A DNA stretch of 64,000 nucleotides. Source: a virus. Position numbers and translations under genes: made by a program. Within the stretch, counting starts at the first letter, position 1, and each line of letters begins with the position of its first letter. The notes under the pieces were generated by a model that had not been told where the DNA came from, searched no databases, and worked only from the letters and a program-made list of their open reading frames with translations. This document shows, one piece after another, positions 866 through 38,966 of the stretch. The stretch lies in the IMG/VR virus record IMGVR_UViG_3300045988_141624, positions 1 to 64,000 of that record, one strand, 5' to 3'.

Positions 866-1267
866 ATGGATACAAGCCAATCTCTTTCAGATTTTTTAGA
901 GTTTTTGCGCCAAAGTCAACAGGATTATAGTATAGCAGCTGACATTGAAACAACCAAAAGCAAAGAAACACAAGATATATTGCACAAAATAGAACTAGAT
1001 GATATTAAATATCATGAATATGCTAAGCTTGCAAAAGCACTAAAATCTATTAGAAATGAAAGACGAGAGGCTAAAAATATTCAGTTGCAATTGGCTCCCT
1101 TGGTTGGGTGGATTAAAGAAAATCAAAATGTCGTTCGGGGACTAGAGAGATTACTGGGTGAGGTTAGGAAAGCCGAGACAAATATTAAAAATGCGCATTA
1201 TTACCCCCGTACTGAAATTGTAGATGAAATATTAGAAAATAAGGAGAATATAAATGGAAAAAATTAA
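866..1267 (+). CDS. Hypothetical protein (K/E-rich, helical)
   Basis: AAGGAGG sits 5 nt before the ATG. The ORF overlaps the methyltransferase start. No family recognised. Confidence 0.6.
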   Translation: MDTSQSLSDFLEFLRQSQQDYSIAADIETTKSKETQDILHKIELDDIKYHEYAKLAKALKSIRNERREAKNIQLQLAPLVGWIKENQNVVRGLERLLGEVRKAETNIKNAHYYPRTEIVDEILENKENINGKN

Positions 1268-2219
1268 ATGTGCTTCTTTTTTTGCTGGTGTCGGAGGCAT
1301 AGACAAAGGTTTTGAAACAGCTAATGATTTTGAAATTGTTTACGCTAACGAATTTGACAAATATGCAGCGCTAACTTATGAATTAAATTCAAAAATAAAA
1401 ATTGACCAAAGAGATATTAGAAATATTTGCGCTGAAGAAATCCCTGACTTTGATGTTCTTTTAGCGGGATTCCCTTGTCAATCTTTTAGTATTGCTGGAC
1501 ATAGACATGGGTTCAAAGATGCAAAAGGAAGAGGAACATTATTCTTTGAGGTCGTGCGAATCGTTAAAACAAAGAAACCTAAGATTGTTTTCTTAGAGAA
1601 CGTAAAGAATCTTGTTACACATGATGATGGAAATACATTTGCTGTAATTTTAGATACGCTTACTCAGCTTGGTTATCATATAAAGTATAAAGTGCTTAAT
1701 GCAATGGAATATGGCAATATTCCGCAGAACAGGGAACGTATTTATATTATTGGCTTTTTGGATGAAAAGCAGTATAATAAATTTGAGTTTCCAGATGCTG
1801 TACCATTGACAACCCAATTGTCAGATATTATTGATTTCCATACAAAATTGAATGAGAAATATTACTATACACCGGGAAAATATAAAGGTGATATTTATGA
1901 TAAACTGGTAGAAGCAATGGATGATGATAGAGCTGTTTACCAATGGAGAAGACAGTATGTGCGTAAAAACAAATCAGGTGTAGTTCCAACATTAACTGCA
2001 AATCAGGGAATGGGTGGACACAATGTTTGTTTGATTAAGACAGATAATGGTATTAGAAAAATGACACCTCGCGAATGTTTTAATGCTCAAGGATTCCCTG
2101 AATGGTTTAGTTTGCCACGAAATATTAGCGATGGTCATTTATATAAACAAGCAGGAAATTCAGTATGTGTACCTGTAATTCAAAGAATTGCTTCTAATAT
2201 TTTAAAAGCTTTTAATTAA
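1254..2219 (+). CDS. DNA (cytosine-5)-methyltransferase
   Basis: Canonical C5-MTase motifs occur in order: FAGVGG (I), GFPCQSFS (IV), LENVKNL (VI), QNRERIY (VIII), GNSV (X). Confidence 0.9.
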   Translation: MEKIKCASFFAGVGGIDKGFETANDFEIVYANEFDKYAALTYELNSKIKIDQRDIRNICAEEIPDFDVLLAGFPCQSFSIAGHRHGFKDAKGRGTLFFEVVRIVKTKKPKIVFLENVKNLVTHDDGNTFAVILDTLTQLGYHIKYKVLNAMEYGNIPQNRERIYIIGFLDEKQYNKFEFPDAVPLTTQLSDIIDFHTKLNEKYYYTPGKYKGDIYDKLVEAMDDDRAVYQWRRQYVRKNKSGVVPTLTANQGMGGHNVCLIKTDNGIRKMTPRECFNAQGFPEWFSLPRNISDGHLYKQAGNSVCVPVIQRIASNILKAFN

Positions 2220-2260
2220 AATGTTTTACTTGTGGATAACATGTGGGAAAAGGAGGAAAA

Positions 2261-2482
2261 ATGAAAGTAAAACCGTTGTTTAAGCCCAATGAACACATTG
2301 ATATTTATTCTTATCTAAAGAAAAAAGGTATAGATAATGTAGAAGAATATTTACAACCGTCTATGGATAATGAAGAGCCTCCAGAGCTCTATGAAAACAT
2401 AGAAGAGGGATATAATGCTCTTATGGATGTTGTGAAAAATATTTTAGAAAACCCAGAAAAAAGTGTTGACAAAGAAAAATAA
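2261..2482 (+). CDS. Hypothetical protein
   Basis: The ATG at 2261 follows AAGGAGG. The upstream GTG start given in the ORF track is unlikely. Confidence 0.5.
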   Translation: MKVKPLFKPNEHIDIYSYLKKKGIDNVEEYLQPSMDNEEPPELYENIEEGYNALMDVVKNILENPEKSVDKEK

Positions 2483-2518
2483 AACTGGTATCATTAAATC
2501 AAGAAAGGAGTTTTGAAT

Positions 2519-2749
2519 ATGAAAGAAAAAACTAAAACAGTGATTACTTTGGAGAAATCTGATTTGGACACCATTGTTGATTTCTCAACTTTATTAACAA
2601 GTCTATGCGTTGCATCATTTGAATCAGATAGTAGCGTATGCGTTAAACACCAGTGCCTATTTAGAGAGTGGTGTGACGAAGATACTCTAATTGAGGCTAT
2701 TAAAGAGAATTTTACAACTGAAAACACGCAAATTATCATTGAGGAATAA
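2519..2749 (+). CDS. Hypothetical protein
   Basis: The ATG at 2519 lies 8 nt after AAAGGAG. Confidence 0.5.
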   Translation: MKEKTKTVITLEKSDLDTIVDFSTLLTSLCVASFESDSSVCVKHQCLFREWCDEDTLIEAIKENFTTENTQIIIEE

Positions 2750-2752
2750 GTT

Positions 2753-3316
2753 ATGAATCAAGTATATATTATCAATGGAAAACCCCGAATTGGGAAAGAC
2801 AGTTTTGTTAAAGAGGTAAAAAAATATTTAGCGAGTGTAAATTATCGAGTATACAATATTTCAGCCATAGAGCCGATTTTACACTTGGTTGAACAGATTG
2901 GGTTTGACGTAGCAAAGACCGCTATGAACAGAAAAATGTTTAGTTTGATTAAACAAGCTGTTGACCTTAGAAATTATACTTTTAATATAACTCAAAACAC
3001 TGTTCAAAACATTCTTACAAAAAAAGGTTCAGACGGAAATAATATTATCTTTATCCATTGTAGAGAGCCAAAAGAAATTGATAAATATGTTCGGGCTTAC
3101 AATGCGAAAACAATCTTAATTATGTCTCCTGAGATTGAAAAACTAAACATTGACTATGGCAATGATTCTGATAACAATGTAAACAATTATAATTACACTT
3201 ACATTATCGACAACCACAAGACATTAGAATTTAAAAGTGAAGAAGAAATAACAAAAGTGAACCATGAATTAGCTAAAAAATTTGTTGAGAATGTGGTTCT
3301 GAAAAGGAGATTTTAA
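2753..3316 (+). CDS. P-loop kinase, dNMP-kinase-like
   Basis: N-terminal Walker A-like GKPRIGKDSF. The size and its position next to dCMP deaminase fit phage deoxynucleotide kinases. Confidence 0.45.
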   Translation: MNQVYIINGKPRIGKDSFVKEVKKYLASVNYRVYNISAIEPILHLVEQIGFDVAKTAMNRKMFSLIKQAVDLRNYTFNITQNTVQNILTKKGSDGNNIIFIHCREPKEIDKYVRAYNAKTILIMSPEIEKLNIDYGNDSDNNVNNYNYTYIIDNHKTLEFKSEEEITKVNHELAKKFVENVVLKRRF

Positions 3317-3441
3317 TGATTTATTGTGAATATTACGAAAATTATAGTGGAGAGTGTGAACACCCAGATTATCCACAGAATGAAACAGGCGATTGCCTTT
3401 TAGAACTTTATGGTGAATGTGAACTTATGGATGAGGAGTAA
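3316..3441 (+). CDS. Small Cys/acidic protein (41 aa)
   Basis: TAATG stop-start overlap with the upstream gene, AAAAGGAG RBS, and the ORF fills the gap before 3444. It is below the ORF-track size cutoff. Confidence 0.4.
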   Translation: MIYCEYYENYSGECEHPDYPQNETGDCLLELYGECELMDEE

Positions 3442-3443
3442 AA

Positions 3444-3857
3444 ATGACTGACTCGCAAGTAAATAAATATTTTGACTTAGCTCGGAACGCAAGCTCCTTC
3501 AGCGATTTTCCCAGGGTGCATATTGGCGCAGTATTCGTTTATAAAAATAAAATTGTTGCGACAGGTTGGAACACAACAAAAGAAAATCCGATACAAAAAC
3601 ATTATAATCAGTGTCGTGGTTTTGACACCAACTCTTATAAAAACTCTCTCCATGCTGAAATGATGTGTCTTGTGCGCTCAAAAGATTATGATGTTGACTG
3701 GAAAAAGGTAAATGTGTTTGTATATCGTGCGCTGAAGAACGGGAAAATTTCATTAGCTAAACCATGTATTGCTTGCGAAACCGCACTCAAAGAAAAAGGA
3801 ATAAAGAATATATACTATACAACGGTTAATGGATATGCTCATGAAAGGTGGAATTGA
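3444..3857 (+). CDS. Deoxycytidylate (dCMP)/cytidine deaminase family protein
   Basis: Zinc-binding motifs HAEMMCL and PCIACETAL (HAE ... PCxxC). Confidence 0.8.
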   Translation: MTDSQVNKYFDLARNASSFSDFPRVHIGAVFVYKNKIVATGWNTTKENPIQKHYNQCRGFDTNSYKNSLHAEMMCLVRSKDYDVDWKKVNVFVYRALKNGKISLAKPCIACETALKEKGIKNIYYTTVNGYAHERWN

Positions 3858-4141
3858 TTTTGGCTCAATCTTTTAAAGAATTTTATTTAGAGTTTTTCTC
3901 TGATAGAGATTATATGGGAATTTCCACAAATGTAGGAAAATATGTTAATAAGCTTAACAAGCTCAAAGAAAAATATCCAGATGATGTAAATCTTGTGACA
4001 AATCCTGAAAACTGGGTTTATGCTAAAATTCCTATCTCTTGGTTTAAGTTTCCTTCGCCCAAAAGACAAGTTACAGATGAACAACGTCAAGCCGCAAGGG
4101 AAAGATTTGCTCAATATCATTTAAATAAAAAGGAGAGCTAA
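3848..4141 (+). CDS. Hypothetical protein
   Basis: ORF packed on the same strand. The start codon is uncertain. Confidence 0.5.
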   Translation: MELILAQSFKEFYLEFFSDRDYMGISTNVGKYVNKLNKLKEKYPDDVNLVTNPENWVYAKIPISWFKFPSPKRQVTDEQRQAARERFAQYHLNKKES

Positions 4142-4142
4142 A

Positions 4143-4532
4143 ATGGCTTTAACAATGAGTTTTATTAGACAAATTCCTAAGACGTGCATTGATTTTACTA
4201 AACTTCCTTTTATTAAAAAATTAACTTATGATAAAATGACAGATTCTTATGCCTGCCATATGAGCACAATTGGATACGCAAAAAATAAAAAAGAATTTGA
4301 TTTATGCGAATTGCGCATTTATAATAAACCAACGCTTATTGATGGGCCCTTAAAAGTTCATTTCTTTAGAAAAAGCACAAACAAATTGAGCCCTTATGTG
4401 TTTGAAAAATTTTTAGACGGAACCGAAATCAAATCTAAACATGACCTCTTGATTCAAAAGTATTTTTTGGAACTGTTTGAAACTTTAGTTAAAAAAGGAG
4501 CTATAAAACTTGAAGCCTCAGAAGAAAATTAA
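4143..4532 (+). CDS. Hypothetical protein
   Basis: The ATG follows AAGGAGAG. No family recognised. Confidence 0.6.
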   Translation: MALTMSFIRQIPKTCIDFTKLPFIKKLTYDKMTDSYACHMSTIGYAKNKKEFDLCELRIYNKPTLIDGPLKVHFFRKSTNKLSPYVFEKFLDGTEIKSKHDLLIQKYFLELFETLVKKGAIKLEASEEN

Positions 4533-4701
4533 ATTTTTAGAAGCAGTATATGATAACGCAATTGCTAACGACATTTGGAAAAAAGAGGAAGAATATGATG
4601 TTGTTGAAGAAACGCACACATACTATATTCTTCAATGGAACAATGGAATGAAAGTGGGCATTGGTAAAGAACTCGAGGGCAAAACCTACGAATTAATCTA
4701 A
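4510..4701 (+). CDS. Hypothetical protein
   Basis: TTG start 9 nt after AAGGAG. Confidence 0.45.
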   Translation: MKPQKKIKFLEAVYDNAIANDIWKKEEEYDVVEETHTYYILQWNNGMKVGIGKELEGKTYELI

Positions 4702-4712
4702 AGGAGAACACA

Positions 4713-5003
4713 ATGAAACAAACTACAACTTATTTGCTGCAAATGCCTGAACAAAATTTTACAGAAGATTTATACCTAGAATTTCCTTTTGAAAAAATCT
4801 TAACCCTCTCCATAGATTTGAATAAATATATTTATGAACACGCTCTCGGGTGGGATAAAATGTTGACCCTTGATGATTTTCAAACTGAGCTTATTAGAAT
4901 TATGTTTCAAGATGAAGATAAAATTTTTTGGTCTGCTTTCTTCAGAGATGAGGTAGAAAAAAATTTAATTGAATATGGAGGATATAATATTATTTTACAA
5001 TGA
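4713..5003 (+). CDS. Hypothetical protein
   Basis: The ATG follows AAGGAGAA. Confidence 0.6.
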   Translation: MKQTTTYLLQMPEQNFTEDLYLEFPFEKILTLSIDLNKYIYEHALGWDKMLTLDDFQTELIRIMFQDEDKIFWSAFFRDEVEKNLIEYGGYNIILQ

Positions 5004-6001
5004 GAGGAAAAGATTTAATGACGTTAGACAGTTTAGATTATGAAGCGCTAAACCGTCTAATTGAAGAAAAGAAAGAAATTACTTATAGACAATTGTGTCA
5101 AGAACTAAATATTCCGCAGCTCGGAGGCAGCTCTAAAATAAAACAACTAAATCAACTTGACGGCATTTGCGAATATGAAAAAAGGAATACGAAATATATT
5201 TTCTTAAGAATGCGAGATACAGAAGAAAGATTTTTGTTTAACAACAGAGCAATTTATGCGCCATATATTGAATATATTATTTCAGAGCTTTTTGCTAAAG
5301 AAGGGCCTCCGAATGATAATCTAATATTTTTCAACACAATGGAATTATTATATTGGTGCAACATGGTAAATAAAAATTTCAAACAAGTCAGATACGCAAG
5401 CGATTTTTCTAAAGTAGCAATTTGTGCGCTTAATGAGTTTAATTTAACTGATTTAGATTTCTTTGTGGATACGACATACGAAAAAATATTGAAACCTATT
5501 GTGCGCTCGGCACTTAAATCCATGGATAATAAAAAAAGCATTGTTATCAACAGAGGCTATAAACTATATTCCAAAACTCAAGACTGGATTAAGCATAAAA
5601 ATGTTCTCGCTACAAGCCCTGAAGGTAAAATTCTTGCTAAAATCGAGGCAGAATCTCTTACAGAATTAGGTATCAGAGGTATGACGGAACTCATGTTCTC
5701 TAAAAAACATTTGCTGCCAAAATATTATGCGCTCACAAGTCAAAAGTGTGAAGAACGGCTTGGATATGATGGATTCTATTCTTGTTATGCCATGATTGTG
5801 AACCCGAAAAGAATTAAATATAATATTGGCGAACTAAAGAAAGAGCTTAATGAAAAAATTCAAGCAAGAGTCTTGACCGCAAAAAGCCTGGACACTCTTA
5901 CAATGGTTAGCCGCAAAATGTTCATTGACTCAATGATTAATGATCGAACCCAATATGATTTCCAAAACGATGAGAACAAATATAAAAAAATCTTTGAATG
6001 A
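5000..6001 (+). CDS. Hypothetical protein (333 aa)
   Basis: Long ORF whose start overlaps the upstream stop. No family recognised. Confidence 0.6.
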   Translation: MRGKDLMTLDSLDYEALNRLIEEKKEITYRQLCQELNIPQLGGSSKIKQLNQLDGICEYEKRNTKYIFLRMRDTEERFLFNNRAIYAPYIEYIISELFAKEGPPNDNLIFFNTMELLYWCNMVNKNFKQVRYASDFSKVAICALNEFNLTDLDFFVDTTYEKILKPIVRSALKSMDNKKSIVINRGYKLYSKTQDWIKHKNVLATSPEGKILAKIEAESLTELGIRGMTELMFSKKHLLPKYYALTSQKCEERLGYDGFYSCYAMIVNPKRIKYNIGELKKELNEKIQARVLTAKSLDTLTMVSRKMFIDSMINDRTQYDFQNDENKYKKIFE

Positions 6002-6009
6002 GGTGTAAA

Positions 6010-6231
6010 ATGAAAGATACAATCTATACCCAAACTCAAAACGCATACACAGAAACGGGTTTCTTTATTATTAATACCGTGTTTAATAAAACTATTATGA
6101 TTCCCACGTCTTGCGTCCATGAATGGGAAGAACTTAATGGAGAATTGACCCCTAGAAAATATAAACAATTCTTAATTGATTATTTTGGTATTCCCCATGG
6201 GTTCACAGCTTTGGAGCCGAACCAAAGATGA
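6010..6231 (+). CDS. Hypothetical protein
   Basis: In-frame ATG at 6010 preceded by GAGGTG. Confidence 0.5.
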   Translation: MKDTIYTQTQNAYTETGFFIINTVFNKTIMIPTSCVHEWEELNGELTPRKYKQFLIDYFGIPHGFTALEPNQR

Positions 6232-6671
6232 AAAAAATAATTAAATTTATGCCCCTTGAGCTCTTCGCCACGAAAAAAGCTCATTGGGTGCGCCAAGGAA
6301 AATATCACGACCTCCAAAGATATTTCGTCAGAGATAACATCAAAGCAATGATGAAAGAAAATCATTCTTATGAAGAGTTCGCGCAAATGCAAAAGAACTT
6401 GTCTTATGGTGTTGAATATATTTGCAGCTCGATTGATGAATATATTTTTATCTCGGGCAAAGAGGCAATGGAAAAATCTTTAATCGAACTCAAAAAATTA
6501 ATTGAAAATAAAGAGCAAGATACACGCAAAATCGTGCGCTATATATGCACTCTCCAGTATTTTATCATCCGCACGTCCTCATTTATGTGCCACGCAAGGG
6601 ATAAAGAATATTGGGAAAAACTTAACTCTCTAAACACACAGAAAAATATGTTTGAAGAAGAGGATTTCTAA
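6228..6671 (+). CDS. Hypothetical protein
   Basis: ATGA overlap with the upstream gene. Confidence 0.6.
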   Translation: MKKIIKFMPLELFATKKAHWVRQGKYHDLQRYFVRDNIKAMMKENHSYEEFAQMQKNLSYGVEYICSSIDEYIFISGKEAMEKSLIELKKLIENKEQDTRKIVRYICTLQYFIIRTSSFMCHARDKEYWEKLNSLNTQKNMFEEEDF

Positions 6672-6937
6672 TGGAAGAATATTTCAAATTTAAAAAAGTA
6701 TACGATTCTTATACCGACCTCAGAGAACAATATTTAGCCCTCCTAGACGAAGGAGATTTTGTAATCGAAAAGAAAATGGATTTATATAAATCTTTCTATT
6801 ACTTTTGTCAAATCTATAACCCCGATATTTTGTTCTTTGATGAATATATCCTCATCTATGATTCCCGCCTATACAATATGTCCGAAGATGAAATTCATGC
6901 CCTTTTTCCAGACCATAAATGGAAAACTCTTATCTGA
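6671..6937 (+). CDS. Hypothetical protein
   Basis: TAATG overlap with the upstream gene. This is the last gene of the block and is followed by a hairpin. Confidence 0.6.
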   Translation: MEEYFKFKKVYDSYTDLREQYLALLDEGDFVIEKKMDLYKSFYYFCQIYNPDILFFDEYILIYDSRLYNMSEDEIHALFPDHKWKTLI

Positions 6938-6958
6938 ATTTGTCCAACTTCGCGGTCT

Positions 6959-7003
6959 GGGCTCGTTATTCATTTTTTGTCCTTGAGGACAAAAAAAGAG
7001 CCC
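6959..7003 (+). terminator. Compound hairpin terminator
   Basis: The inner stem pairs ttttttgtcc (6973-6982) with ggacaaaaaa (6987-6996). The outer stem pairs gggctc (6959-6964) with gagccc (6998-7003). Confidence 0.55.
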
Positions 7004-7077
7004 ATAAACCCTTAAAATTAATTTTTGTCTATTCTGCTCCTATATATATTCTATTAATACAAGAATAGACAAAAAAC

Positions 7078-7138
7078 TGTGGATAACCTGTGGATAAGTA
7101 TAAAGTTATCCACATATGGGCATAAAAACTGTGGATAA
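7078..7138. promoter_or_regulatory. Cluster of four perfect DnaA boxes (putative origin element)
   Basis: TGTGGATAA at 7078-7086, 7089-7097 and 7130-7138, and TTATCCACA at 7106-7114. A/T-only DNA follows directly. Confidence 0.6.
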
Positions 7139-7139
7139 C

Positions 7140-8330
7140 TTTTGTTTTTAGTATGAAATATTATTATATCTAGTATTGAAGTCTAGGTATATATAATTAT
7201 AATTTTTATATATATAAATAATATTTAATATATATTATATAATATATAATGGGGATTATATATTAAATGAAATTTAAAATATATCATATAATATCAAATG
7301 ATACTATATTAAGAAATAAAAAGAATACGAGAGAATATAAGAGAGAAAAATAATATTGATTGAGATAATACCATTTAGTATTAATTAAAAAAATGAAGTG
7401 AGAGAGAATAAGAGGAAAATAATACTAAATGAAATAATATCAAATGATATTATTTAAAGATAGAGAAAAAGAAATATGATATATAACATGTATTATATAT
7501 TAGACAGAAGGAATGAGATAGAGAGGGATATATAATGAGTATTATATATTAAAAAAAGAGAGAAATTATGCGTGAGGCAGAGAAGAGGGAATAATAAAAG
7601 TGTTGGATTTTTGTAGTAGCTACAGGTAAAATATTCAAAATTTCTGCATAAATATTCCAAAAAGTACCCCCTCTGGCATGCATAGGAGTTTGCATAATAG
7701 TCCATATAATATACATTATAAGTACTATAGTGGACTTTGGCAGCTCAGAAAATGGGATTTTTTAGGGGTAAATCCCTATTTTAATTATAATTTTATGCAA
7801 AAAAATGTATAATGCTTTTTTGATTTTAGGGTAGGGGGTAATAGCGAAACTATAAATTATATAATACAACAAACCCCATTATCTTCCCTTCTAACCCCTT
7901 TACCCCTCTATCCCTTGTCCCTATACCTTCCTTTTTCTTTCCTCTTATAACGTCCCTCAAAGCCTCACAAGGCCATACAATAATATTATAATAATATTAT
8001 ATTTATTTATTCTATTATATATATTATATTCCTGTATAATTTGCCTACTTCTACACAATCTATTTTATAAAATAAAAAAAAGATATAACTATTTTATTAT
8101 ATCTTTTTTATTCTATCTTATTCTATTATATTATATATGCCTTGCATTCTATTATTATATTATTGTATACAATATTCTATTTTATAATTTATATTTTATA
8201 TTTTATTTTTTGCGTATGTGCTATTATAATATCTTACTATCATACTATGATATAATATACAGCATTATAAAATAATATAATAAAAAATAATTATATATAA
8301 TATTTCATATATCCGATATTAAAATATAAA
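7140..8330. repeat. Noncoding A/T-rich island with internal direct repeats and strand-asymmetric purine and pyrimidine blocks
   Basis: There is no credible ORF. ataatatcaaatgata occurs at about 7299 and about 7435. GA-rich units lie at 7320-7560 and a CT-rich block at 7865-7975. Confidence 0.6.
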
Positions 8331-8337
8331 ATAAAAA

Positions 8338-8359
8338 AGAGGGATTTTTTTATCCCTCT
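8338..8359. terminator. Bidirectional hairpin terminator
   Basis: agaggga (8338-8344) pairs with tccctct (8353-8359). The hairpin is flanked by an A-run and a T-run. Confidence 0.55.
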
Positions 8360-8409
8360 TTTTTTGACTTTCATTTATGGCTGTCAACCCTTTTTAAAAA
8401 TTTTTAATT

Positions 8410-8562
8410 TTATTTTATACTTTGACATAATAGCGCCCCTATAATATACAATGTGTAAATCCATAATAACAATTTTAGCACTTCTAAAATCTCATGTTTT
8501 GAACGCCATAAGAAGCGGATTTTATCGACAAGGCTATTTTTTCTGATTTTATATTTTTTCAT
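8410..8562 (-). CDS. Small hypothetical protein (50 aa, hydrophobic C-terminus)
   Basis: Minus-strand ATG at 8562 with a weak RBS. It is the last ORF of the leftward cassette and is below the ORF-track cutoff. Confidence 0.3.
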   Translation of the reverse strand: MKKYKIRKNSLVDKIRFLWRSKHEILEVLKLLLWIYTLYIIGALLCQSIK

Positions 8563-8576
8563 TGATTTGTCCTCTC

Positions 8577-8741
8577 TTAGTCCCGATTATATTCTATATA
8601 ATTTTGCCAAGCTGCACGAGCCAAAAAAAACTTTTCTTCTTCTGTTAGTGTTTTATCCTGGTTTACCAGAAGATAAAAATCATCGTATTGCGCCCGTGTT
8701 TCAATGTCAAAAGTTTTTTCTTTGTACTGGTTATAAATCAT
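8577..8741 (-). CDS. Small hypothetical protein (54 aa)
   Basis: The minus strand reads AAAGGAGGAATAAAAATG, a strong RBS, and a consensus promoter lies just upstream. It is preferred over the plus-strand ORF 8567-8776. Confidence 0.5.
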   Translation of the reverse strand: MIYNQYKEKTFDIETRAQYDDFYLLVNQDKTLTEEEKFFLARAAWQNYIEYNRD

Positions 8742-8769
8742 TTTTATTCCTCCTTTTGTTTACATTTAT

Positions 8770-8798
8770 ATTATAAAAGATTTTATTGTATATGTCAA
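8770..8798 (-). promoter_or_regulatory. Consensus promoter (leftward)
   Basis: On the minus strand: TTGACA (8798-8793), a 17-nt spacer, then TATAAT (8775-8770). Confidence 0.6.
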
Positions 8799-8882
8799 TA
8801 GTTTTTTAAAAAATTTTTATAAATAAAAAAATAACCATTTCAGGCGTTAGAATAAAGAAGTGGATAGATTATACTATAAAAA

Positions 8883-27831: not shown

Positions 27832-30800
27832 ATGTATTTTAACAATCATGTTCATGATGAATACAGTAATGCTGCTTTAGGTTTTCCCGATGTAGTCAAC
27901 AAAGTAGAAGATGTAATTCAAAAAGCTTATGACTTGGGATTAAGTGGTATTGCAATTACTAATCATGAATGTGTTTCCTCACATATTAAAGCATTACAAT
28001 ATTATGAGAAAATGGAAAAAGACAGACCTTTTAAAATTGCTTTGGGGAATGAAATTTATTTAATGGACGAAAGTGAGGACGAAGAAAACAGAACAGAAAA
28101 AAGAACAGTTTATCCTTATTATCATTTTATTTTAACAGCTTTAGACACCTTGGGCCATAAACAAATCAGAGAGCTTTCAACAAGAGCTTGGAAAAGAGCC
28201 TATTTCTCTAGGGGTTTAATGAGGACACCCACTTATTATAGTGATATAGAAGAGGTTGTTGGACAAGAAAAAGGCCATATTATTGCCTCGACCGCTTGTC
28301 TTGGAAGCTTTTTAGATAAGATGATTTTGCAATGGAAAAATGGGGATAATACAGCAAAATTAGCTATTCATAGCTTCATAACGTGGTGCATTGATACTTT
28401 TGGTAAAGATAATTTCTTTTTAGAAATTCAACCATGTTATGAAGATAATGTAGAACAAGTGACAGTTAATTCAGCAATGAAAGAATTATCTAAAGCATAC
28501 AAACTAGGAATCATTCCTACTACTGACGCTCATTATTTAACAAAAGACATGGCTTTTGTGCATAAAACCTATCTAAATTCTAAAGAGGGTGAGCGAGAAG
28601 TAGATAAATTTTATGCCATGACTTATCTAATGGACGAGGAAGAATTGAGAACGTTTCTCAAATTGCAATTTTCCATTAAAGAAATAGATGAAATGTACAA
28701 GAATACGTTGTTAATTTGGGATAGAATTGAAAAATATGATTTACAACACAATCCTATTATTCCTCAAATTCCCGAAGAGAAGTTACCTCAATTTAAAATC
28801 AGACATTTGTTTAAGGAATGGTATTCTAAATATCCTAATTTTGCTTTTTATAGTAACAACGAGAGAACACTCCATGAACAATATTTCTTTTATCAAATTG
28901 AAAAAGGATTTGAAAAAAAGGTTTGTAATAGTGTAAAACCTAAGAATATAGAACAATATATAGCAAGATTAGATGAAGAATTTGAACAATTTCGCTTAAT
29001 AAGTGAAGCATTGGGTACATCTATCCCCTGTTATTTTAGCTCTATGTCCCGAATAATAGATATAATATGGGACATTGGTAGTTTAGTTATGCCAGGGAGA
29101 GGTAGTGCGGGTGCATGTCTTTCTTGTTATTTATTGGATATTACACAAATAGACCCCGTTCCTTTTGGTGATTATATGCCGTTTTGGAGATTCCTTAAAT
29201 AATTTTTTATCCTAAATCATTAAGACATGGATAAAAAATTTAGGGCCTTATATTAGGAATGATATAAGTGGAGACTGTGAACTATCTAACCAATAGGTGT
29301 GAGAATGTAATTCTTGCTAACGAGGAAAGTCTAAGGATGAAAATCTATGATAATCTCGTGCCAAGCCCTTTGTCAAGGAAAGGTGTAACGACTAAGCAAG
29401 CTGAATGTGGTTACAGCTTTAGCGCAGTCTACCCCAACTGAAATAAGTGGGTAAAGAAATAGTCTATCCCGCTATGGAAACATAGCGGTAGTGAGAAACG
29501 TACAACGCGGCGTAGAACTTCCAGATTAATAACATAGTTTGGCTATATGGTGACATATAGAAAATAAAGTGGCTAACCAGTGAAAGTGCTGGGTGTGAGG
29601 AAAATCCTTGCTAACAGTGAAAACCTTGTTCATCCTGAATCGTGAACATGGCGATACTGTGCCAAGTTTTGTATTAAAAATACATTAAAGGTGCAACGAC
29701 TAAGCCCCGTAGGGTGAAACTCCCCGCGGTTAATGCCACTCTCTCCAATTGGAGATGAAGATATAGTCTAAACCGACTGTTTATTCAGTGTTAAAGTATT
29801 GGGAATAAATAACCAACGGTATAATTGATTGACACAGATTCAGAATCATCAAAAAAGAATGAAATTGTTCAGGGTGTTGTAGATTTCTTTGGTGAAGATA
29901 GGGTGTTAAGCATTGCAACATTTTCTGCCTTAACCAGTAAAACGGCAATAGAGAAAAGCTGTAAAGGCTTGGGAATTAATAATGATACAGCTAACTACAT
30001 TAAAGCTATGATACCTATTGAGCGTGGTTTTACTTGGAGCTTAAAAGATTGTTTTGAGGGTGATTTGGAAAAGCAAAGAAAACCAATTCAAACATTTATT
30101 AATGAAGTCAACAAATATCCTAAGCTAAAAGAATGTGCTTTGGCTTTAGAAGGATTGATAACAGGAAGAAGCACTCATGCAGCGGGCATCTTAATTGGGA
30201 ACGAACCTTATACCAATTTCATAGCTGCAATGCGATCTCCCAAAGGCGATTTATGTTCTTGCTATGACCTAATAGACGCTGAACACTGTGGGGAAATTAA
30301 ATTTGACTTGTTAAAAACCAATGCAACAGATAAAATTCACACAACGTTAGATTTGTTACTTAAAGACAATTTAATTGAATGGCAAGGAAGTCTAAAGAGC
30401 ACCTATGAAAAATATATTCATCCCGATGTATTAGATTATGAAAACCCTAAAATGTGGGATATAATTAAAAATATATATAGTGTTTTTCAATTTGATACAA
30501 ATGTCAGTGTCCGCGCTTTAAATGCTACTCATCCTAAAAGCGTTATGGATTTATCTGCAACAAACAACCTGTTAAGGCTTATGTCTCAACCAGGACAAGA
30601 ATCTCCCCTAGATAAATATGCACGTTTTAAAAACAATATTAATGAATGGTATAATGAAATGGAAAGCTATGGGCTTTCTAAAGATGAACAAAAATGCTTA
30701 GAGGAATATTTAATTGATTCTTATGGACTAGCAGACAGTCAAGAAAAAGTAATGCGTCTAAGTATGGATAAAAGAATAAGTGGTTATACATTAAAAGAGG

Positions 30801-32710
30801 CAAACAAACTTCGTAAAAGTATTGCGCGGAAATCACAGAAATTACAAGAAGAAGCTAAGCAACAATTTTTTGAATATGGAGAGAAATTAGGCACCAGAAA
30901 AGAATTTTTAAATTATGTATGGAATGTTATTTTTGGTGCGTCATTTGGCTATGTAGAAATGGTCATGATTTGTGAACCTTACCAGGGGTGTGCTGTTATT
31001 TAACAGTGCTAACGGTATCAGCTGAATAAGACTGTTGTTCAAGAGTTACAACTAGATAACAACGTTAAAAAAGACGAAGCAGCTGACTAAGAAAATCTAA
31101 GGTCTATGTAAAATAGATAGCTGACAATACCGTGCGGTTTCTTATGAGGTCGTGTAGAGACTATTCCGATAGGAAGTACACTAACTATTGGTACGTTGGT
31201 GGAAGTGCAAATCTATAACAAATTTTGTTATAAAGATATAGTCCGATGGATTAATATGAAAATTCATATGTTGTAGAAATACAAAAATCCACTCGATTCC
31301 TTCTCCCAAATTCATTCAACCTCTTATTCTATTATCGCCCTACAAGAATTAAATCTTAATTATTATTACCCCTCAGTCTATTGGAATTGTGCTTGTTTAA
31401 CAGTGGAAAGTCAATCAGACGATGACACAGATAAAAGAACAGCAATAGATTATGGCAAAATGGCTCGCAGTATTTACAAGATGAAACAACATGGTATTGA
31501 TGTTTTGCCTCCTTCTATCAACAAATCCAATATTTCTTTTACACCCAATAAAGAAAACAACACTATTTTGTTTGGATTAGGTGGTATTTCAGGGATAAAC
31601 AATGAAGCAGCTAGAGAAATAGTTAATAATCGTCCATATAGTTCTTTTGAAGATTTCTACAACAAAGTTCAAAAGAATAAAAATACGTTATTAAAAAATC
31701 AAAAAATTATAACTTTAATTAAATCTGGTTGTTTTGATGAGTTTGATACTAGCAGAACAAATATTATGAAACAATATTTTGCTTTAATGTATGAACCAAA
31801 AGAAGAGTTGACTTTGCAAAATATGAGCAAAATATTAGAGTATGATATTCCTGTTCCCGAAGAGCTATTAAACCCTTATTTGTTAAGTAAACAAATAAAA
31901 CAGAAAAAGAATTTCTATAAAAACGATGAAAAAGCTAAGAGTAAAAAACATTATAGAGTGCCACATGATTTACAAAATGATTTATTAATTATGTTCCCTG
32001 AATTAAAAGAAGATGTTGATTATTATTATGATAGTGACATAATGATAATTATTGATAAAGCTTTAGACAAACAAATGAAAAAGATTAATGAAAAAATTAA
32101 AGAGTATATTACACAGGATAAAGTAAAGGATGAGTTTAATTCTAGGGGTAGAGAGTTGTTATACCATGAGAACATAAAACAAGAAAATGAATTGCAATGG
32201 GCTTTTTCTTCCACGTCTTTTTATCCAAACAATGAACATGAATTAAATAACATTGATTGTGATAAATATAATATTATTGATTATAATCTTTTACCAGAGA
32301 ACCCTGAATTTGAAACTAAGTATTATGTTAAGAAAGATGGTGAAGAGGTTGTTTGGAACCAATATTATCTTTATAGAATTTGTGGTACAGTAACAAGTAA
32401 GGATAAAAATAAAAGGACAGTAGATATTTTGACTCCCACCAATGATGTGGTAACAATTCGTTTAAATGATGAAGTTTATACTTATTATGAACAAAAAATA
32501 TCTGAGGGCACAGATACAAATAAAACCGTAATTGATGATAGCTGGTTTACAAGAGGAAAAATGTTATGTGTTGTAGGATATAGACAAGGGGACGGGTTCA
32601 GAGGAAAAAGATATAGAAGCTCAATTTTCAAACATACAATTATGTTAATAGAAAAAGTAAATCAAGACGGTTCTTTAGAGTTAAGAACAGAAAGAAAAAT
32701 AAAAGACTAG
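27832..32710 (+). CDS. dnaE: DNA polymerase III alpha subunit (PHP plus polymerase core), interrupted by three group I introns. Exons: 27832-29195, 29496-29526, 29828-30950, 31296-32710.
   Basis: PHP motif HVHDEYS, plus GRGSAGACLSCYLLDITQIDP. Spliced joins restore FWRFL-NVQRGVELPD-IDTD and GY-SFSQIHS. The exons sum to 3933 nt, which is 1311 codons. Confidence 0.85.
29196..29495 (+). mobile_element. Group I intron (PolIII intron 1, no ORF)
   Basis: The 5' exon ends in U and the insert ends in G. Core-like strings ttgctaacgaggaaag, ctcgtgccaag, gtgtaacgactaagc and aaatagtct. It is a paralogue of the next intron. Confidence 0.75.
29527..29827 (+). mobile_element. Group I intron (PolIII intron 2, no ORF)
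   Basis: The exon end ccagaU can pair with the intron sequence gtttgg (P1-like). Core-like strings ttgctaacagtgaaaac, ctgtgccaag, gtgcaacgactaagc and gatatagtct. It ends in G. Confidence 0.75.
30951..31295 (+). mobile_element. Group I intron (PolIII intron 3, no ORF)
   Basis: It splits GY|SFSQIHS. It contains agatatagtccga. The 5' exon ends in U and the insert ends in G. Confidence 0.7.
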
Positions 32711-35398: not shown

Positions 35399-38300
35399 TT
35401 GTCAAAGTTATTGGAAAAATATCAAGAACAATATAAGCCTTATGTAAAGTTTATTGATTCTTATCGTAAAGCTTCCAATGCAGCTAGTGGTAGTGAAGTA
35501 GACTCTAACGCAAATGTAGAGAATAAAAACATTACCACTTTACAAGGAGAACTAAACAAAAAAGAAATTATTGGAACAAATCGCACTCTAATGATTGAAA
35601 AACTTACAGAACTGTATGGCGAAGAAACCGCAAAAGAATACATTCGTCAACTTGAGGCCCATGAAATTTATAAACATGATGAAACCAGTATTATGCCGTA
35701 CTGCGTTAGCATTACAATGTATCCTTTCTTATTCGATGGGCTAACCAACATCGGTGGTTTATCTACGGCACCCAACAATTTGGATTCTTTTTGTGGGAGC
35801 TTTGTTAATTTAGTATTTGCCATTGCTTCTCAATTCGCAGGAGCAGTAAGCACACCAGAGTTTCTAATGTATATGGATTATTTCATTAGAAAAGAATATG
35901 GAAATGATTATTATTTAAAACCTGATTCTGTAGTATCAGCCATTGGTAGAAAAAGAACTATTCATTCTGTTATTCATGATAAGTTCAGCCAAGTTGTTTA
36001 TTCATTAAATCAACCAGCTGCCGCAAGGAATTTTCAAAGCGTAAACTAAAATGCGCCTATATGTAGTAATAGATATAGCAAACTCCTTTAATTTCTGGGA
36101 AATCTTATTATAATTATAGTTTTATCATTCATAATAAGACAATCAGAAGCGAAGCCCTATAAAGGGAACGTTCAACGACCATTGCGAAAGCAAGTACACT
36201 ATAAGCGTTTGATAGTGGAAATGGGGAGTATCCTTTCAAAGGATAGTGATATGGTCTACTCTTTATGGTGACATAAAGCAGTTCATAAGAGAACGCATAC
36301 AACGTAGCGCATTGTATGGAATACAAGGGTTTTGGAATATTGCTTATTTCGACCAACCTTATTTTAACGGTATGTTTGAAGATTTTGTTTTTCCCGATGG
36401 TTCTGAACCTTGTTGGGATAGTGTGAATTGGCTCCAAAAAGACTTTATGAAATGGTTTAATGCAGAAAGATTAAAAACAGCTACATCGTTCTTATCTTTC
36501 CCTGTTGAAACTGTTAATCTTTTGGATAATGGGACAGATTATGTGGATAAAGAATGGAAAGATTTCACAGCACAAATGTGGGCAGAAGGACATTCATTCT
36601 TCTGTTATAGAAGCAATAGTGTTGACTCGTTGGCATCGTGTTGTAGGCTCAGAAACGAAATTCAAGAAAACACGTTCTCATTTACGTTAGGTGCCGGAGG
36701 TGTGTCTACAGGTTCTAAAGGCGTTATTACCATTAACATCAATAGATTGGTGCAAAATGTTTATAAAAAGAATCCTCACGCAACATTAAAAGATATTTCT
36801 AAAACTGTTAGAGAACAAATTCATAAAGTACATTGTTACTTAACAGCATTTAATGAAATTATAAAAGATAATTTTAAATCTAAAATGCTTCCTGTTTATG
36901 ATGCAGGATATATTGCTTTAGAAAAACAATATTTAAGTTTAGGTATGTAATTTAATGCCTTACATTGCTTTTCCAGTTATCGCTGGGGTACTAAGGAGTG
37001 CTAACGAGGAAACCTGACTACCATAAGGTAAAAGGCAATCTCGTGGGAAGGAAGTTTTTGTATGGAAATTTATATGATTCAAAATGATATTAATAATATG
37101 GTTTATATAGGACAGATAAATAATTCAAAACATAGGTTGAAGCAACATGTTTCAGCAGATTTATTAAAAAGACTGTTTTATTCATTGAAATATGAACAAG
37201 ATAAAACTATGACTCAAATCGCTAGAGAGTATAAAATTGACATAAGTCAACTGAATAAAATTAACCAAGGACGCGACCACAGGGTTGATTGGCAAACATA
37301 TCCTGTTAGAAAAGGCAAAGTATCCAATCCGTTATACAAACATGCTGAGGAAATAAGAAACTTGCTTAAAAACACAGATATTCCACAAAAAGACATAGCC
37401 AGAAAATTTAATGTTTCTGTTTCCTCGGTGCGTGCTATCAATAAGGGGAGCTATTATAGAGATAATAAACTATCTTATCCTTTAAGATATAATTATCAAT
37501 GCTATAATAGTGGAAGAACCGCTCTGTCTCCTAGTGAGGTTTGTGAAATAGAAGAGAAATTAAAAAACACTAATATTTCAATGCGCTCCATTGCTGCGGA
37601 ATACGAAATCGCATTGACAACTGTTACAAATTTAAATATTGGCTCAATAAAAAAATATCGTAAAGAATCATTAAATTATCCATTGCGGAAACTTTAACCT
37701 GTATCGACTATCCTCGCATAGAGGAGTAAAAAAACTATTGATACGTTTTTTGAAATGGCAATGGCACTATCAAGGGATAGTAATTAAGAAATAGTCAGTT
37801 CTATTAGAAATAATAGGTTAAACGATTAACGGTTTTCTTGAAGGGGCAGAATTTTTAGGCATTGAGATTTCACCCAATGAGGAATATTTTGCCTATGGTG
37901 AAGCCATTCTAAAACCAATCTACGAAGAAAACAAAAAAGATAAAACATCAGAGATTATGTTTAACACGGAGTTCGTGCCTGAAAAGAGTGGGCACTAAGT
38001 AGGATAATCCATAAACTACTTATAGGAAATTTTCTTTAATTGACTCGGAAATCCAGAGGTGGACAACGAGGGGCAAGTTTAAATACAGCCTGAACGACTA
38101 AATAAGAAAACTTCATAGGAAATTAAATGAAGGTGCAATAGTCTGAACTCATATACAACCTAACTAAAGTATGAGAAAGAAAGTCAGATGTACAGACATC
38201 TTAAAGAAGAACTTTCTTCGCCAAGCTATCTTGGTCATTAAAGTAACAGAATTGGCAGAAAATCTCGGTGTTAAAAATGCAAAATGGGATAGAGAAGATG

Positions 38301-38966
38301 GATATTATGTTCCCAGAGATTGTTACAATAGCTATTTTTATATAGTAGAAGATGAAAATACTAACCTTTTAGATAAGTTTATTCTACATGGAGATAAATT
38401 AACCAAATATTTAGATGGTAGACAAAACTGCCTGTTACACCTTTTCCACTAATCAGTGGGGTATACAAAATATGCTAACGGTGAAGGCTAAGTCTTATTG
38501 ATACGCTAATACCGTGGGAAAGATTTTTACTATACAGTTAAAATCCAATCCTGTATCGACTATCTCCGTATCGGGAGAGTAGGGTTGTTATTGATACGCA
38601 ACCCGAAATGGGTGTTGCTGCGCAAAGCAGTTAAAATATAGTCAGCGCCGTTTGGAAACAACGGATAAAGTGGGTTCAGCTCTCCATGCTAACTTAGAAG
38701 AACATTTATCTAAAGAACAATACTTAAAAATGCTTGAAGTAGCTATTAAAACTGGTTGCAGTTATTTCACATTTAATATCCCAAATACAGCCTGTAATGA
38801 CTGTGGATATATTTCTAAACATAAACTAACCAAATGTCCTAAATGCGGAAGTGAGAACTTAGATTATATAACAAGAGTAATTGGTTACATGAAAAGAATT
38901 TCTAGTTTCTCAGAAGCAAGACAAAAGGAAGAAAAACAAAGATATTATGACAAAGTTAAAGTATGA
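35399..38966 (+). CDS. nrdD: Anaerobic ribonucleoside-triphosphate reductase (class III NrdD), interrupted by four group I introns. Exons: 35399-36042, 36329-36944, 37825-37980, 38255-38419, 38673-38966.
   Basis: Joins restore NFQSV-FWNIAYFDQPYF, KQYLSLG-INGFLEGAEFLG, NTEFVP-AENLGVKNAKWD and KYLDG-GSALHANL. The C-terminus has a CNDCGY..CPKCGS zinc ribbon and a glycyl-radical-type RVIGYM. The exons sum to 1875 nt, which is 625 codons. Confidence 0.85.
36043..36328 (+). mobile_element. Group I intron (nrdD intron 1, no ORF)
   Basis: The exon end agcgU can pair with the intron sequence gcgc 12 nt downstream. It contains ttcaacgacc and gatatggtct, and ends in G. Confidence 0.7.
36945..37824 (+). 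mobile_element. Group I intron (nrdD intron 2) carrying an endonuclease-like ORF
   Basis: Core strings gtgctaacgaggaaacc, ctcgtgggaagg and gaaatagtca flank ORF 37062-37697. The 5' exon ends in U and the insert ends in G. Confidence 0.75.
37062..37697 (+). CDS. Intron-encoded GIY-YIG-type endonuclease relative with three NUMOD1-like HTH repeats. The catalytic domain appears truncated.
   Basis: The N-terminal IYMIQNDINNMVYIGQ...RLKQH matches GIY-(x10)-YIG...R..H. Three repeats of the form (M/Q)..IA.(E/K)(Y/F).(I/V)..(S/T).(L/V)..(I/L)N.G follow. No downstream conserved Glu/Asn region is seen. Confidence 0.6.
   Translation: MEIYMIQNDINNMVYIGQINNSKHRLKQHVSADLLKRLFYSLKYEQDKTMTQIAREYKIDISQLNKINQGRDHRVDWQTYPVRKGKVSNPLYKHAEEIRNLLKNTDIPQKDIARKFNVSVSSVRAINKGSYYRDNKLSYPLRYNYQCYNSGRTALSPSEVCEIEEKLKNTNISMRSIAAEYEIALTTVTNLNIGSIKKYRKESLNYPLRKL
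37981..38254 (+). mobile_element. Group I intron (nrdD intron 3, no ORF)
   Basis: It splits FVP|AENLG. It contains ctgaacgactaaataag and gcaatagtctga. The 5' exon ends in U and the insert ends in G. Confidence 0.7.
38420..38672 (+). mobile_element. Group I intron (nrdD intron 4, no ORF)
   Basis: It splits LDG|GSALH. It contains atgctaacggtgaagg, accgtgggaaag, cctgtatcgactatc (also present in intron 2) and aaatatagtcag. Confidence 0.7.

Follow-up and report, generated by a model that had tools for sequence, protein, structure and literature searches.

A DnaE-type phage replicase gene very probably split by three mobile group I introns, a pair of them flanking a 31-nt exon

The window analyzed here is the stretch of 64,000 nucleotides (nt) at positions 1-64,000 of the IMG/VR virus record IMGVR_UViG_3300045988_141624, and it includes a Firmicutes-type phage dnaE locus on the + strand at 27832-32710. 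As a preliminary description of this DNA had listed, the locus holds three large open reading frame (ORF) fragments on the + strand (27832-29202, 29825-31003, and 31403-32710), each of which begins at a possible start codon (ATG, TTG, GTG). That description proposed that the fragments and an additional 31-nt piece are exons of one gene for the alpha subunit of DNA polymerase III (Pol III), interrupted by three group I introns. Indeed, removal of the three inserts restores a single PHP plus Pol III alpha reading frame (Table 1). Based on the evidence below, we consider it highly probable that the region is one DnaE-type (C-family Pol III alpha, PHP-bearing) phage replicase gene split by three mobile group I introns.

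When joined, the four exons (1364 + 31 + 1123 + 1415 nt) make up 3933 nt, as had been calculated, which corresponds to 1310 codons plus one terminal stop with zero internal stops. The spliced product has the Pfam domains PHP (PF02811), DNA_pol3_alpha (PF07733), DNA_pol3_finger (PF17657), and HHH_6 (PF14579) in the normal order, and it is colinear end to end with the Thermus aquaticus (Taq) DnaE structures 3e0d and 2hpi (E = 1.7e-74). This colinearity includes the peptide of the 31-nt exon (hereafter, the mini-exon): in ..WRFL-NVQRGVELPD-IDTD.., NVQRGVELPD sits over Taq ..ERFLNPER-VSMPDIDTD.., and at the third junction FGY-SFSQIHS sits over Taq NYGFNKSHA. The preliminary description was correct in its coordinates, its arithmetic, and its reading of the motifs. 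Altogether, the spliced protein contains, in sequence, the elements of a C-family DnaE: PHP, a palm with the PDIDxD aspartates, a thumb, fingers with GYxFxxSH, and HhH.

Relatives of the window dnaE were gathered by a protein-guided scan of IMG/VR, and the close ones come from one metagenome; megablast against phage records gave a 50-nt match only, so relatives needed protein-level and distant searches. The IMG/VR contig L010 has an uninterrupted coding sequence (CDS) of exactly 3933 nt, whose product shares 93% amino acid (aa) identity with the window protein and which aligns to the conceptual spliced CDS with no gaps at 89.3% DNA identity. The dnaE of Enterocloster phage PMBT24 is also uninterrupted (57% aa identity), and STERGIEIPD stands there in place of the mini-exon's NVQRGVELPD. 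Because the match to the empty L010 allele is gapless, the junctions are nucleotide-exact, save for slides that yield an identical mRNA; among these equivalent slides, boundaries were chosen by the rule that the exon ends in U and the intron in G. All three junctions can be placed this way, as previously noted, with each 5' exon terminating in T (U) and each insert in G (G29495, G29827, and G31295).

Table 1. Exons and proposed group I introns of the dnaE locus, in window coordinates. A slash marks the insertion point, here and in the text.
Feature	Position	Strand	Content and evidence
dnaE exon 1	27832..29195	+	PHP domain and N-terminal Pol III alpha palm; ends ..WRFL, final base U; ORF, spliced translation, Pfam, tblastn against intron-less PMBT24 and L010
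Group I intron 1, 300 nt, ORF-less	29196..29495	+	In Leu455 codon (CT/A), between WRFL and NVQR; Rfam, P1, terminal G
Mini-exon (exon 2), 31 nt	29496..29526	+	Third base of Leu455 codon and NVQRGVELPD; intron 2 takes the final 6 nt, CCAGAU, into its P1
Group I intron 2, 301 nt, ORF-less	29527..29827	+	Between Asp and Ile codons of PD/IDTD (GAT/ATT); Rfam, P1, terminal G
dnaE exon 3	29828..30950	+	Remaining palm, thumb, start of fingers; begins IDTDSE, ends ..ASFG and first base of Tyr codon
Group I intron 3, 345 nt, ORF-less	30951..31295	+	In Tyr codon of FGY/SFSQIHS (T/AT); homology, covariation, P1, terminal G
dnaE exon 4	31296..32710	+	Fingers GYSFSxxHS motif, HhH, C-terminal OB-like region, stop codon

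Introns 1 and 2 match the Rfam group I model Intron_gpI (RF00028) over its full length (model positions 1-253) and above its gathering score of 50. The match of intron 1 lies at 29223-29487 (62.5 bits, E = 1.8e-13), and that of intron 2 at 29535-29788 (52.7 bits, E = 1.5e-10). An independent minimum free energy (MFE) fold of the 5' end of intron 1 includes a P1 hairpin in which the last exon base, U29195, pairs with G29243, and in the MFE fold of the 5' end of intron 2, P1 pairs U29526 to G29537 and is followed by a P2 hairpin. In both introns, the 3' strand of P3 comes directly after P7. The 3' 72 nt of intron 2 (29756-29827, P7' to the end) are ~82% identical to the 3' ends of introns in Twort-like phages, and the likeness stops exactly at 29827; for the corresponding Twort region, AY954970 gives no feature and MT151386 gives terminase large subunit. 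In their makeup, the introns resemble modular mosaics. The 3' domain of intron 2 also resembles the 3' end of a Staphylococcus SPbeta-like dnaE intron (L005 5380-5445; cf. L028 2501-2567), and the 5' part of that SPbeta-like intron belongs to the intron 3 family.

Intron 3 was identified by homology and covariation. Inserts that occupy this site (GY/S) in five Enterocloster phages and the relative L009 share 80-96% identity with it. Intron 3 is also 72-83% identical over 130-230 nt to unannotated gaps in the split dnaE genes of five further phage groups: Lactobacillus phage SA-C12, Enterococcus phage EF1, Staphylococcus phage SPbeta-like, Mammaliicoccus phages, and Bacillus phage G. Similar identity is seen with an insert in Clostridium phages CS266P1-4 that carries an I-HmuI-like endonuclease ORF and whose host gene is annotated only as hypothetical proteins. 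The intron 3 family is common in split dnaE genes of Firmicutes phages.

To analyze the fold of this family, we aligned eight of its members, with ORF-bearing loops trimmed by hand. RNAalifold predicts 87 pairs for the alignment, 48 of which show compensatory change. With the P7 pseudoknot added (92 pairs), 94.0% of alignment cells are paired, compared to 37-43% when partners are slid by 1-3 columns; likewise, 48 pairs are altered on both sides, compared to 10-19 in the slid controls, and none of 500 shuffles of the alignment reached any of these measures. The helices comprise P1, a long-range P3, P4, the P5 region, P6, P7, P7.1, P7.2, and P8, so that intron 3 has the P3/P7 pseudoknot, P4-P6 domain, P8, and covariation of a group I fold. 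P7 is invariant, pairing GACUA (31159-31163 in the window) with UAGUC (31239-31243). The P7.1 and P7.2 hairpins (helices 17 and 18) both carry compensatory changes; P7.1 and P7.2 between P7 and the 3' strand of P3 would make an intron a candidate for IA2, the typical phage group I subgroup. A different P3 for intron 3, GUGCU with AGUGC, was considered and rejected, as RNAalifold and covariation favor GAUUUGUG with GUGCAAAUC. The splice-site U·G in P1 is present in seven of the eight rows, and we judge the exception, the SA-C12 row, to be a MAFFT misalignment at the 5' end. In the MFE fold of the window intron itself, U30950 pairs with G30961. Taken together, the two Rfam matches, the gapless empty allele, and the covariation in intron 3 rule out chance.

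Several observations weigh against group I splicing of all three inserts. Only introns 1 and 2 are recovered by RF00028, the model with which the preliminary description had proposed to check the inserts: in a search of 29100-31500, intron 3 had no match to any Rfam family, even at E <= 10. The P6 of intron 3 lacks the usual CCAAG motif, and the alignment of its family holds only eight hand-trimmed sequences, some of them close kin. The P1 of intron 1 pairs just three exon bases in the MFE fold, and no convincing P10 was found for intron 1 or intron 2 in a by-eye search. Splicing, as well as its efficiency and order, is inferred from sequence anatomy.

Intron 3 has additional hairpins, one set located between P3 and P4 and another in the P5 region, and these, along with its shortened P6, plausibly account for the missing Rfam match. 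The SA-C12 member of the family does match Intron_gpI over its full length, under the gathering score (32 bits, E = 1.6e-4). Furthermore, Intron_gpI gave zero matches on L001/L002 and L008-L012, though these loci carry orthologs of all three introns. The model seems to respond poorly to cores that are elaborated or interrupted by ORFs. An RF00028 search alone would therefore have wrongly rejected intron 3, and homology plus covariation were required.

The same features raise the question of whether intron 3, and possibly the others, has lost self-splicing and either depends on a phage or host protein or splices so poorly that polymerase output is limited. In addition to the lack of an Rfam match, intron 3 has G·U pairs in its shortened P6 and a non-consensus J6/7, and a related copy, that of Enterocloster phage CB457P1, seems to end in A rather than G. 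We regard such a loss as unlikely because all core helices are retained with compensatory changes, the U·G and the terminal G are both present, and the window copy is 96-100% identical to an L009 copy with an intact HNH ORF, which makes it evolutionarily young. The terminal A of the CB457P1 site-3 intron (L001 4671-5142; ..CAATTCA/ATTCC) could be a sequencing variant, or it could mean that the intron is defective or that the 3' splice site is an alternative one; the copy in Enterocloster phage CB473P3 ends in G.

The relatives show both empty and occupied states at each of the three insertion sites, which we number in the order of the window introns (site 1, L/N; site 2, D/I; site 3, GY/S). 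No site is occupied in L010, L012, or PMBT24. L008 has an intron at site 1 only, L011 at site 2 only, and L009 at site 3 only, while Enterocloster phages CB457P1 and CB473P3 have introns at sites 2 and 3. L033 (ERZ772821 NODE_75), which is the same phage as IMGVR_UViG_3300045988_128355, has four inserts in its dnaE (965-8802): at sites 1, 2, and 3 and at a new site after ..KLRKSVA. The insert at the new site lies at about 5537-7031, and the remaining three are at L/N, D/I, and GY/S. The L033 intron 2 is ~1 kb long and has three small ORFs that are unlike classical homing endonucleases.

Copies of these introns in the relatives also carry endonuclease ORFs. Site 1 is empty in L009-L012 and PMBT24, and the intron 1 orthologs in L008 and L032/L033 have a LAGLIDADG ORF (307 aa, LAGLIDADG_3). 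At site 3, the L009 copy has a 246-aa NUMOD4+HNH_3 ORF. At site 2, the L011 copy has two overlapping ORFs with NUMOD4- and HNH-like motifs recognized by eye, neither of which is matched by Pfam, and the CB473P3 copy is annotated as I-HmuI-like. The larger copies have the same ends as the window introns, and their ORFs lie in hairpin loops; in the window, introns 1-3 have no ORF of 60 aa or more. Thus, the inserts are three independent mobile introns, and the window copies are ORF-less versions.

Where occupied and empty alleles differ in their exons, the differences are concentrated at site 1. The window exons match those of L010 at 58% of the bases no more than 6 nt from that site, compared to 89% overall, and 5 of the 12 bases around the site (29184-29207) differ. 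The intron-1 alleles (window, L008, and L033) code for RFL/N, and the empty alleles of close relatives (L010 and L009) code for RFM/N (a change of FL/NV to FM/NI). This divergence would fit co-conversion, or an altered endonuclease target that may confer resistance.

Insertion sites in phage dnaE are clustered: across phages, three of them (L/N, P/D, and D/I) lie within 34 nt of the active-site motif. The P/D site is used by the intron 3 family, whose members lie between the Pro and Asp codons (CCT/GAT) of PDIDxD, 3 nt upstream of where intron 2 sits in the window, in Staphylococcus phage SPbeta-like, Enterococcus phage EF1, and Bacillus phage G (L005 4969-5445, L004 2699-3538, L007 about 3988-5143, L030, and L031). 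The Clostridium CS266P phages have an identical ..ACCT/AAA 5' junction in a gene annotated only as hypothetical proteins. In four GenBank loci, L001, L002 (OP172753, OP172757), L005, and L006, the dnaE exons are entered as two or three "hypothetical protein" or "dnaE_1/dnaE_2" genes, and the introns are unannotated.

The preliminary description took introns 1 and 2 for a duplicated ribozyme located 31 nt from its copy. The similar strings it quoted from the two inserts are present in the sequence, and the introns are related (~62% identity overall, 0.66 in the core). If one ribozyme had recently been duplicated in place, the mini-exon would be a by-product of the event, and the nearly equal lengths of 300 and 301 nt would be expected. 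In addition, introns 1 and 2 are more alike (alignment z-score 7.2) than either is to intron 3 or to an intron in the window's nrdD gene (z <= 2.3), and core identity between the two lineages is 0.63-0.73 (0.70-0.73 for the L033 site-2 intron against site-1 introns), compared to 0.51-0.60 against the nrdD intron. However, overall identity is just ~62%, and their orthologs at the same sites are closer: 0.81-0.96 identity for intron 1, and z = 15.5 for intron 2 against Enterocloster intron A. Each intron is also found alone in relatives, intron 1 in L008 and intron 2 in L011 and the Enterocloster phages, and the ORFs of the ORF-bearing versions differ both in endonuclease family (LAGLIDADG versus HNH) and in where they lie in the ribozyme. 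Finally, the exon sequence across both sites is single-copy and colinear with the empty alleles, without a duplicated target. A recent tandem duplication is therefore improbable; because of the closer same-site orthologs, the solo occurrences, and the different endonuclease families, introns 1 and 2 are best read as related lineages that settled at neighboring sites.

If all three introns splice, we propose the following course. The dnaE gene would be transcribed as one pre-mRNA, in which each ribozyme selects its 5' splice site via P1, through a pair between the final U of the exon and a G in the internal guide. The 5' site would come under attack by an external guanosine, the released exon would then attack the bond after the intron's terminal G, and excision of all three introns would give an mRNA for the 1310-aa polymerase. 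Introns 1 and 2 would both act on the mini-exon: intron 2 would take bases 26-31 (CCAGAU) for its P1, and intron 1 would ligate to the first base or bases. Because these recognition elements do not overlap, each of the two introns could splice independently, and 31 nt would suffice. The introns occupy PDIDxD and GYxFxxSH, probably because these conserved motifs are the targets of the spreading homing endonucleases.

The layout of intron, 31-nt exon, and intron is not confined to the window. A pattern search for the intron 1 end, 28-34 nt, and the intron 2 start found one more phage in IMG/VR (L032), which was found again in an ENA assembly (L033). Its mini-exon is also 31 nt long and at the same place, and its exon proteins are just 56-59% identical to those of the window, so the layout appears to persist or recur.

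There is a slim chance that inclusion or skipping of the mini-exon by its two flanking ribozymes acts as a switch at the level of splicing, or that introns 1 and 2 spread as one composite homing unit. A switch is conceivable because 31 nt is no whole number of codons and the mini-exon supplies some of the catalytic-aspartate motif; when it is skipped in silico (29195 joined to 29828), the frame shifts and a stop follows after 472 aa. Full-length polymerase would then be made only when both introns splice independently, and skipping would yield a 472-aa product with only the PHP domain. A composite unit is conceivable because the introns are 31 nt apart, and a co-conversion tract from either endonuclease cut would carry both.

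It is very improbable that there is no splicing and that the locus is a decaying pseudogene or encodes a replicase of separate polypeptides that assemble after translation, since, even though all the large fragments are ORFs that could have their own start codons and GenBank annotators of related phages enter such fragments as separate proteins, the 31-nt piece, which carries some of the catalytic motif, lacks a start codon and is untranslatable alone, the breaks fall inside codons and inside the PDIDxD and GYxF motifs, the exons are under protein-level constraint and gapless against intact alleles, the inserts have conserved, covarying ribozyme structure, and the cultured Enterocloster phages that bear these inserts are viable isolates. 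Inteins were rejected, as the inserts have in-frame stops and no intein ORF, and so were group II introns, as the inserts are 300-345 nt long and match group I.

The dnaE gene lies in a replication and nucleotide-metabolism module, with a RecJ-like DHH protein upstream and a RecD2-like helicase downstream, followed by nrdD (anaerobic ribonucleotide reductase) and an ORF that we take to be the NrdG activase. Like dnaE, the nrdD gene (35399-38966; Pfam NRDD pieces at profile positions 4-158, 174-356, and 470-560) contains three group I introns, with approximate boundaries at about 36043-36278, about 36951-37830, and about 38453-38665. The first of these has an Rfam match of 83.7 bits, and the other two were detected only by an nhmmer profile and by reading core motifs. 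Inside the second is a 211-aa ORF (37062-37697), probably for a homing endonuclease, which has helix-turn-helix motifs and a GIY-YIG domain (23.9 bits; cut-off 22.6). No other endonuclease-like ORF was found within the six introns of the window. In all, about 11 kb of the window contains six or more group I introns, and Rfam Intron_gpI misses at least half of them, which is a practical lesson for annotation. A P7-like motif on the minus strand near 58739 was dropped as it had no profile support.

Among GenBank phages, Enterocloster CB457P1/CB473P3, EF1, Staphylococcus phage SPbeta-like, SA-C12, and phage G resemble the window in having a dnaE that is split at the same or adjacent sites (D/I or P/D, and GY/S) by introns of the same families as introns 2 and 3, often with HNH endonuclease ORFs. 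They differ from it in that all of them lack an intron at site 1 and a mini-exon. In most cases the annotation is of separate proteins, and a "Phage intron" note is given for EF1 alone. Another practical lesson is that several GenBank phage records give dnaE exons as separate hypothetical proteins. In our literature searches, no paper turned up on group I introns in phage dnaE. With the window, the C-family DnaE replicase of Firmicutes-type phages joins the phage genes colonized by group I introns, and the Pol III active-site motif is an insertion hot spot, with 0 to 4 introns in the dnaE of related gut and sewage phages.

Other replicase genes offer parallels. In Bastillevirinae, a DNA polymerase gene can have as many as three introns of group I, with exon skipping on record (PMC11878797). 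As in the window, the introns of SPO1/SP82, Bastille, and the Bastillevirinae are mobile group I introns, often with HNH endonucleases, in conserved replicase motifs. The SPO1 and Bastille polymerases belong to a different polymerase family from C-family DnaE. More generally, introns and inteins that hit conserved active-site motifs are a known pattern (PMC2814812).

The preliminary description was not aware of a precedent for a tiny exon between two such introns in phage replicase genes, but precedents for the architecture exist in Twort orf142, in Coxiella, and in the Bastillevirinae polymerases. In the 23S rRNA gene of Coxiella burnetii, a 34-nt exon lies between two group I introns of subgroups IB2 and IA3 (PMC10136302); the very short exon is shared with the window, while the host gene is a bacterial rRNA gene and the introns are of different subgroups. 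Closest is Twort orf142, which, as summarized in later papers, contains three group I introns, with two highly similar IA2 introns flanking a skippable 23-nt exon (Landthaler & Shub 1999, via PMC10136302 and PMC11878797). The window likewise has a 31-nt exon between two Rfam-positive introns, an arrangement that recurs in L033. Both cases have one phage gene with three introns, two similar introns around a tiny exon (23 nt there, 31 nt here), and skipping of the short exon as the obvious alternative outcome. They differ in the host gene, which in the window is a DnaE-type polymerase instead of orf142, and in the flanking introns, which in the window are just ~62-66% identical. For Twort, exon skipping and self-splicing are reported as demonstrated; for the window, self-splicing is predicted and skipping would be a possible outcome. 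Thus, the layout itself is already known from Twort, and what is new here is the C-family DnaE host gene, the three sites clustered within 34 nt of the catalytic motif, and the range of 0-4 introns per gene among relatives. The natural construct of two introns around a 31-nt exon lends itself to testing by what means neighboring ribozymes escape exon skipping or put it to use.

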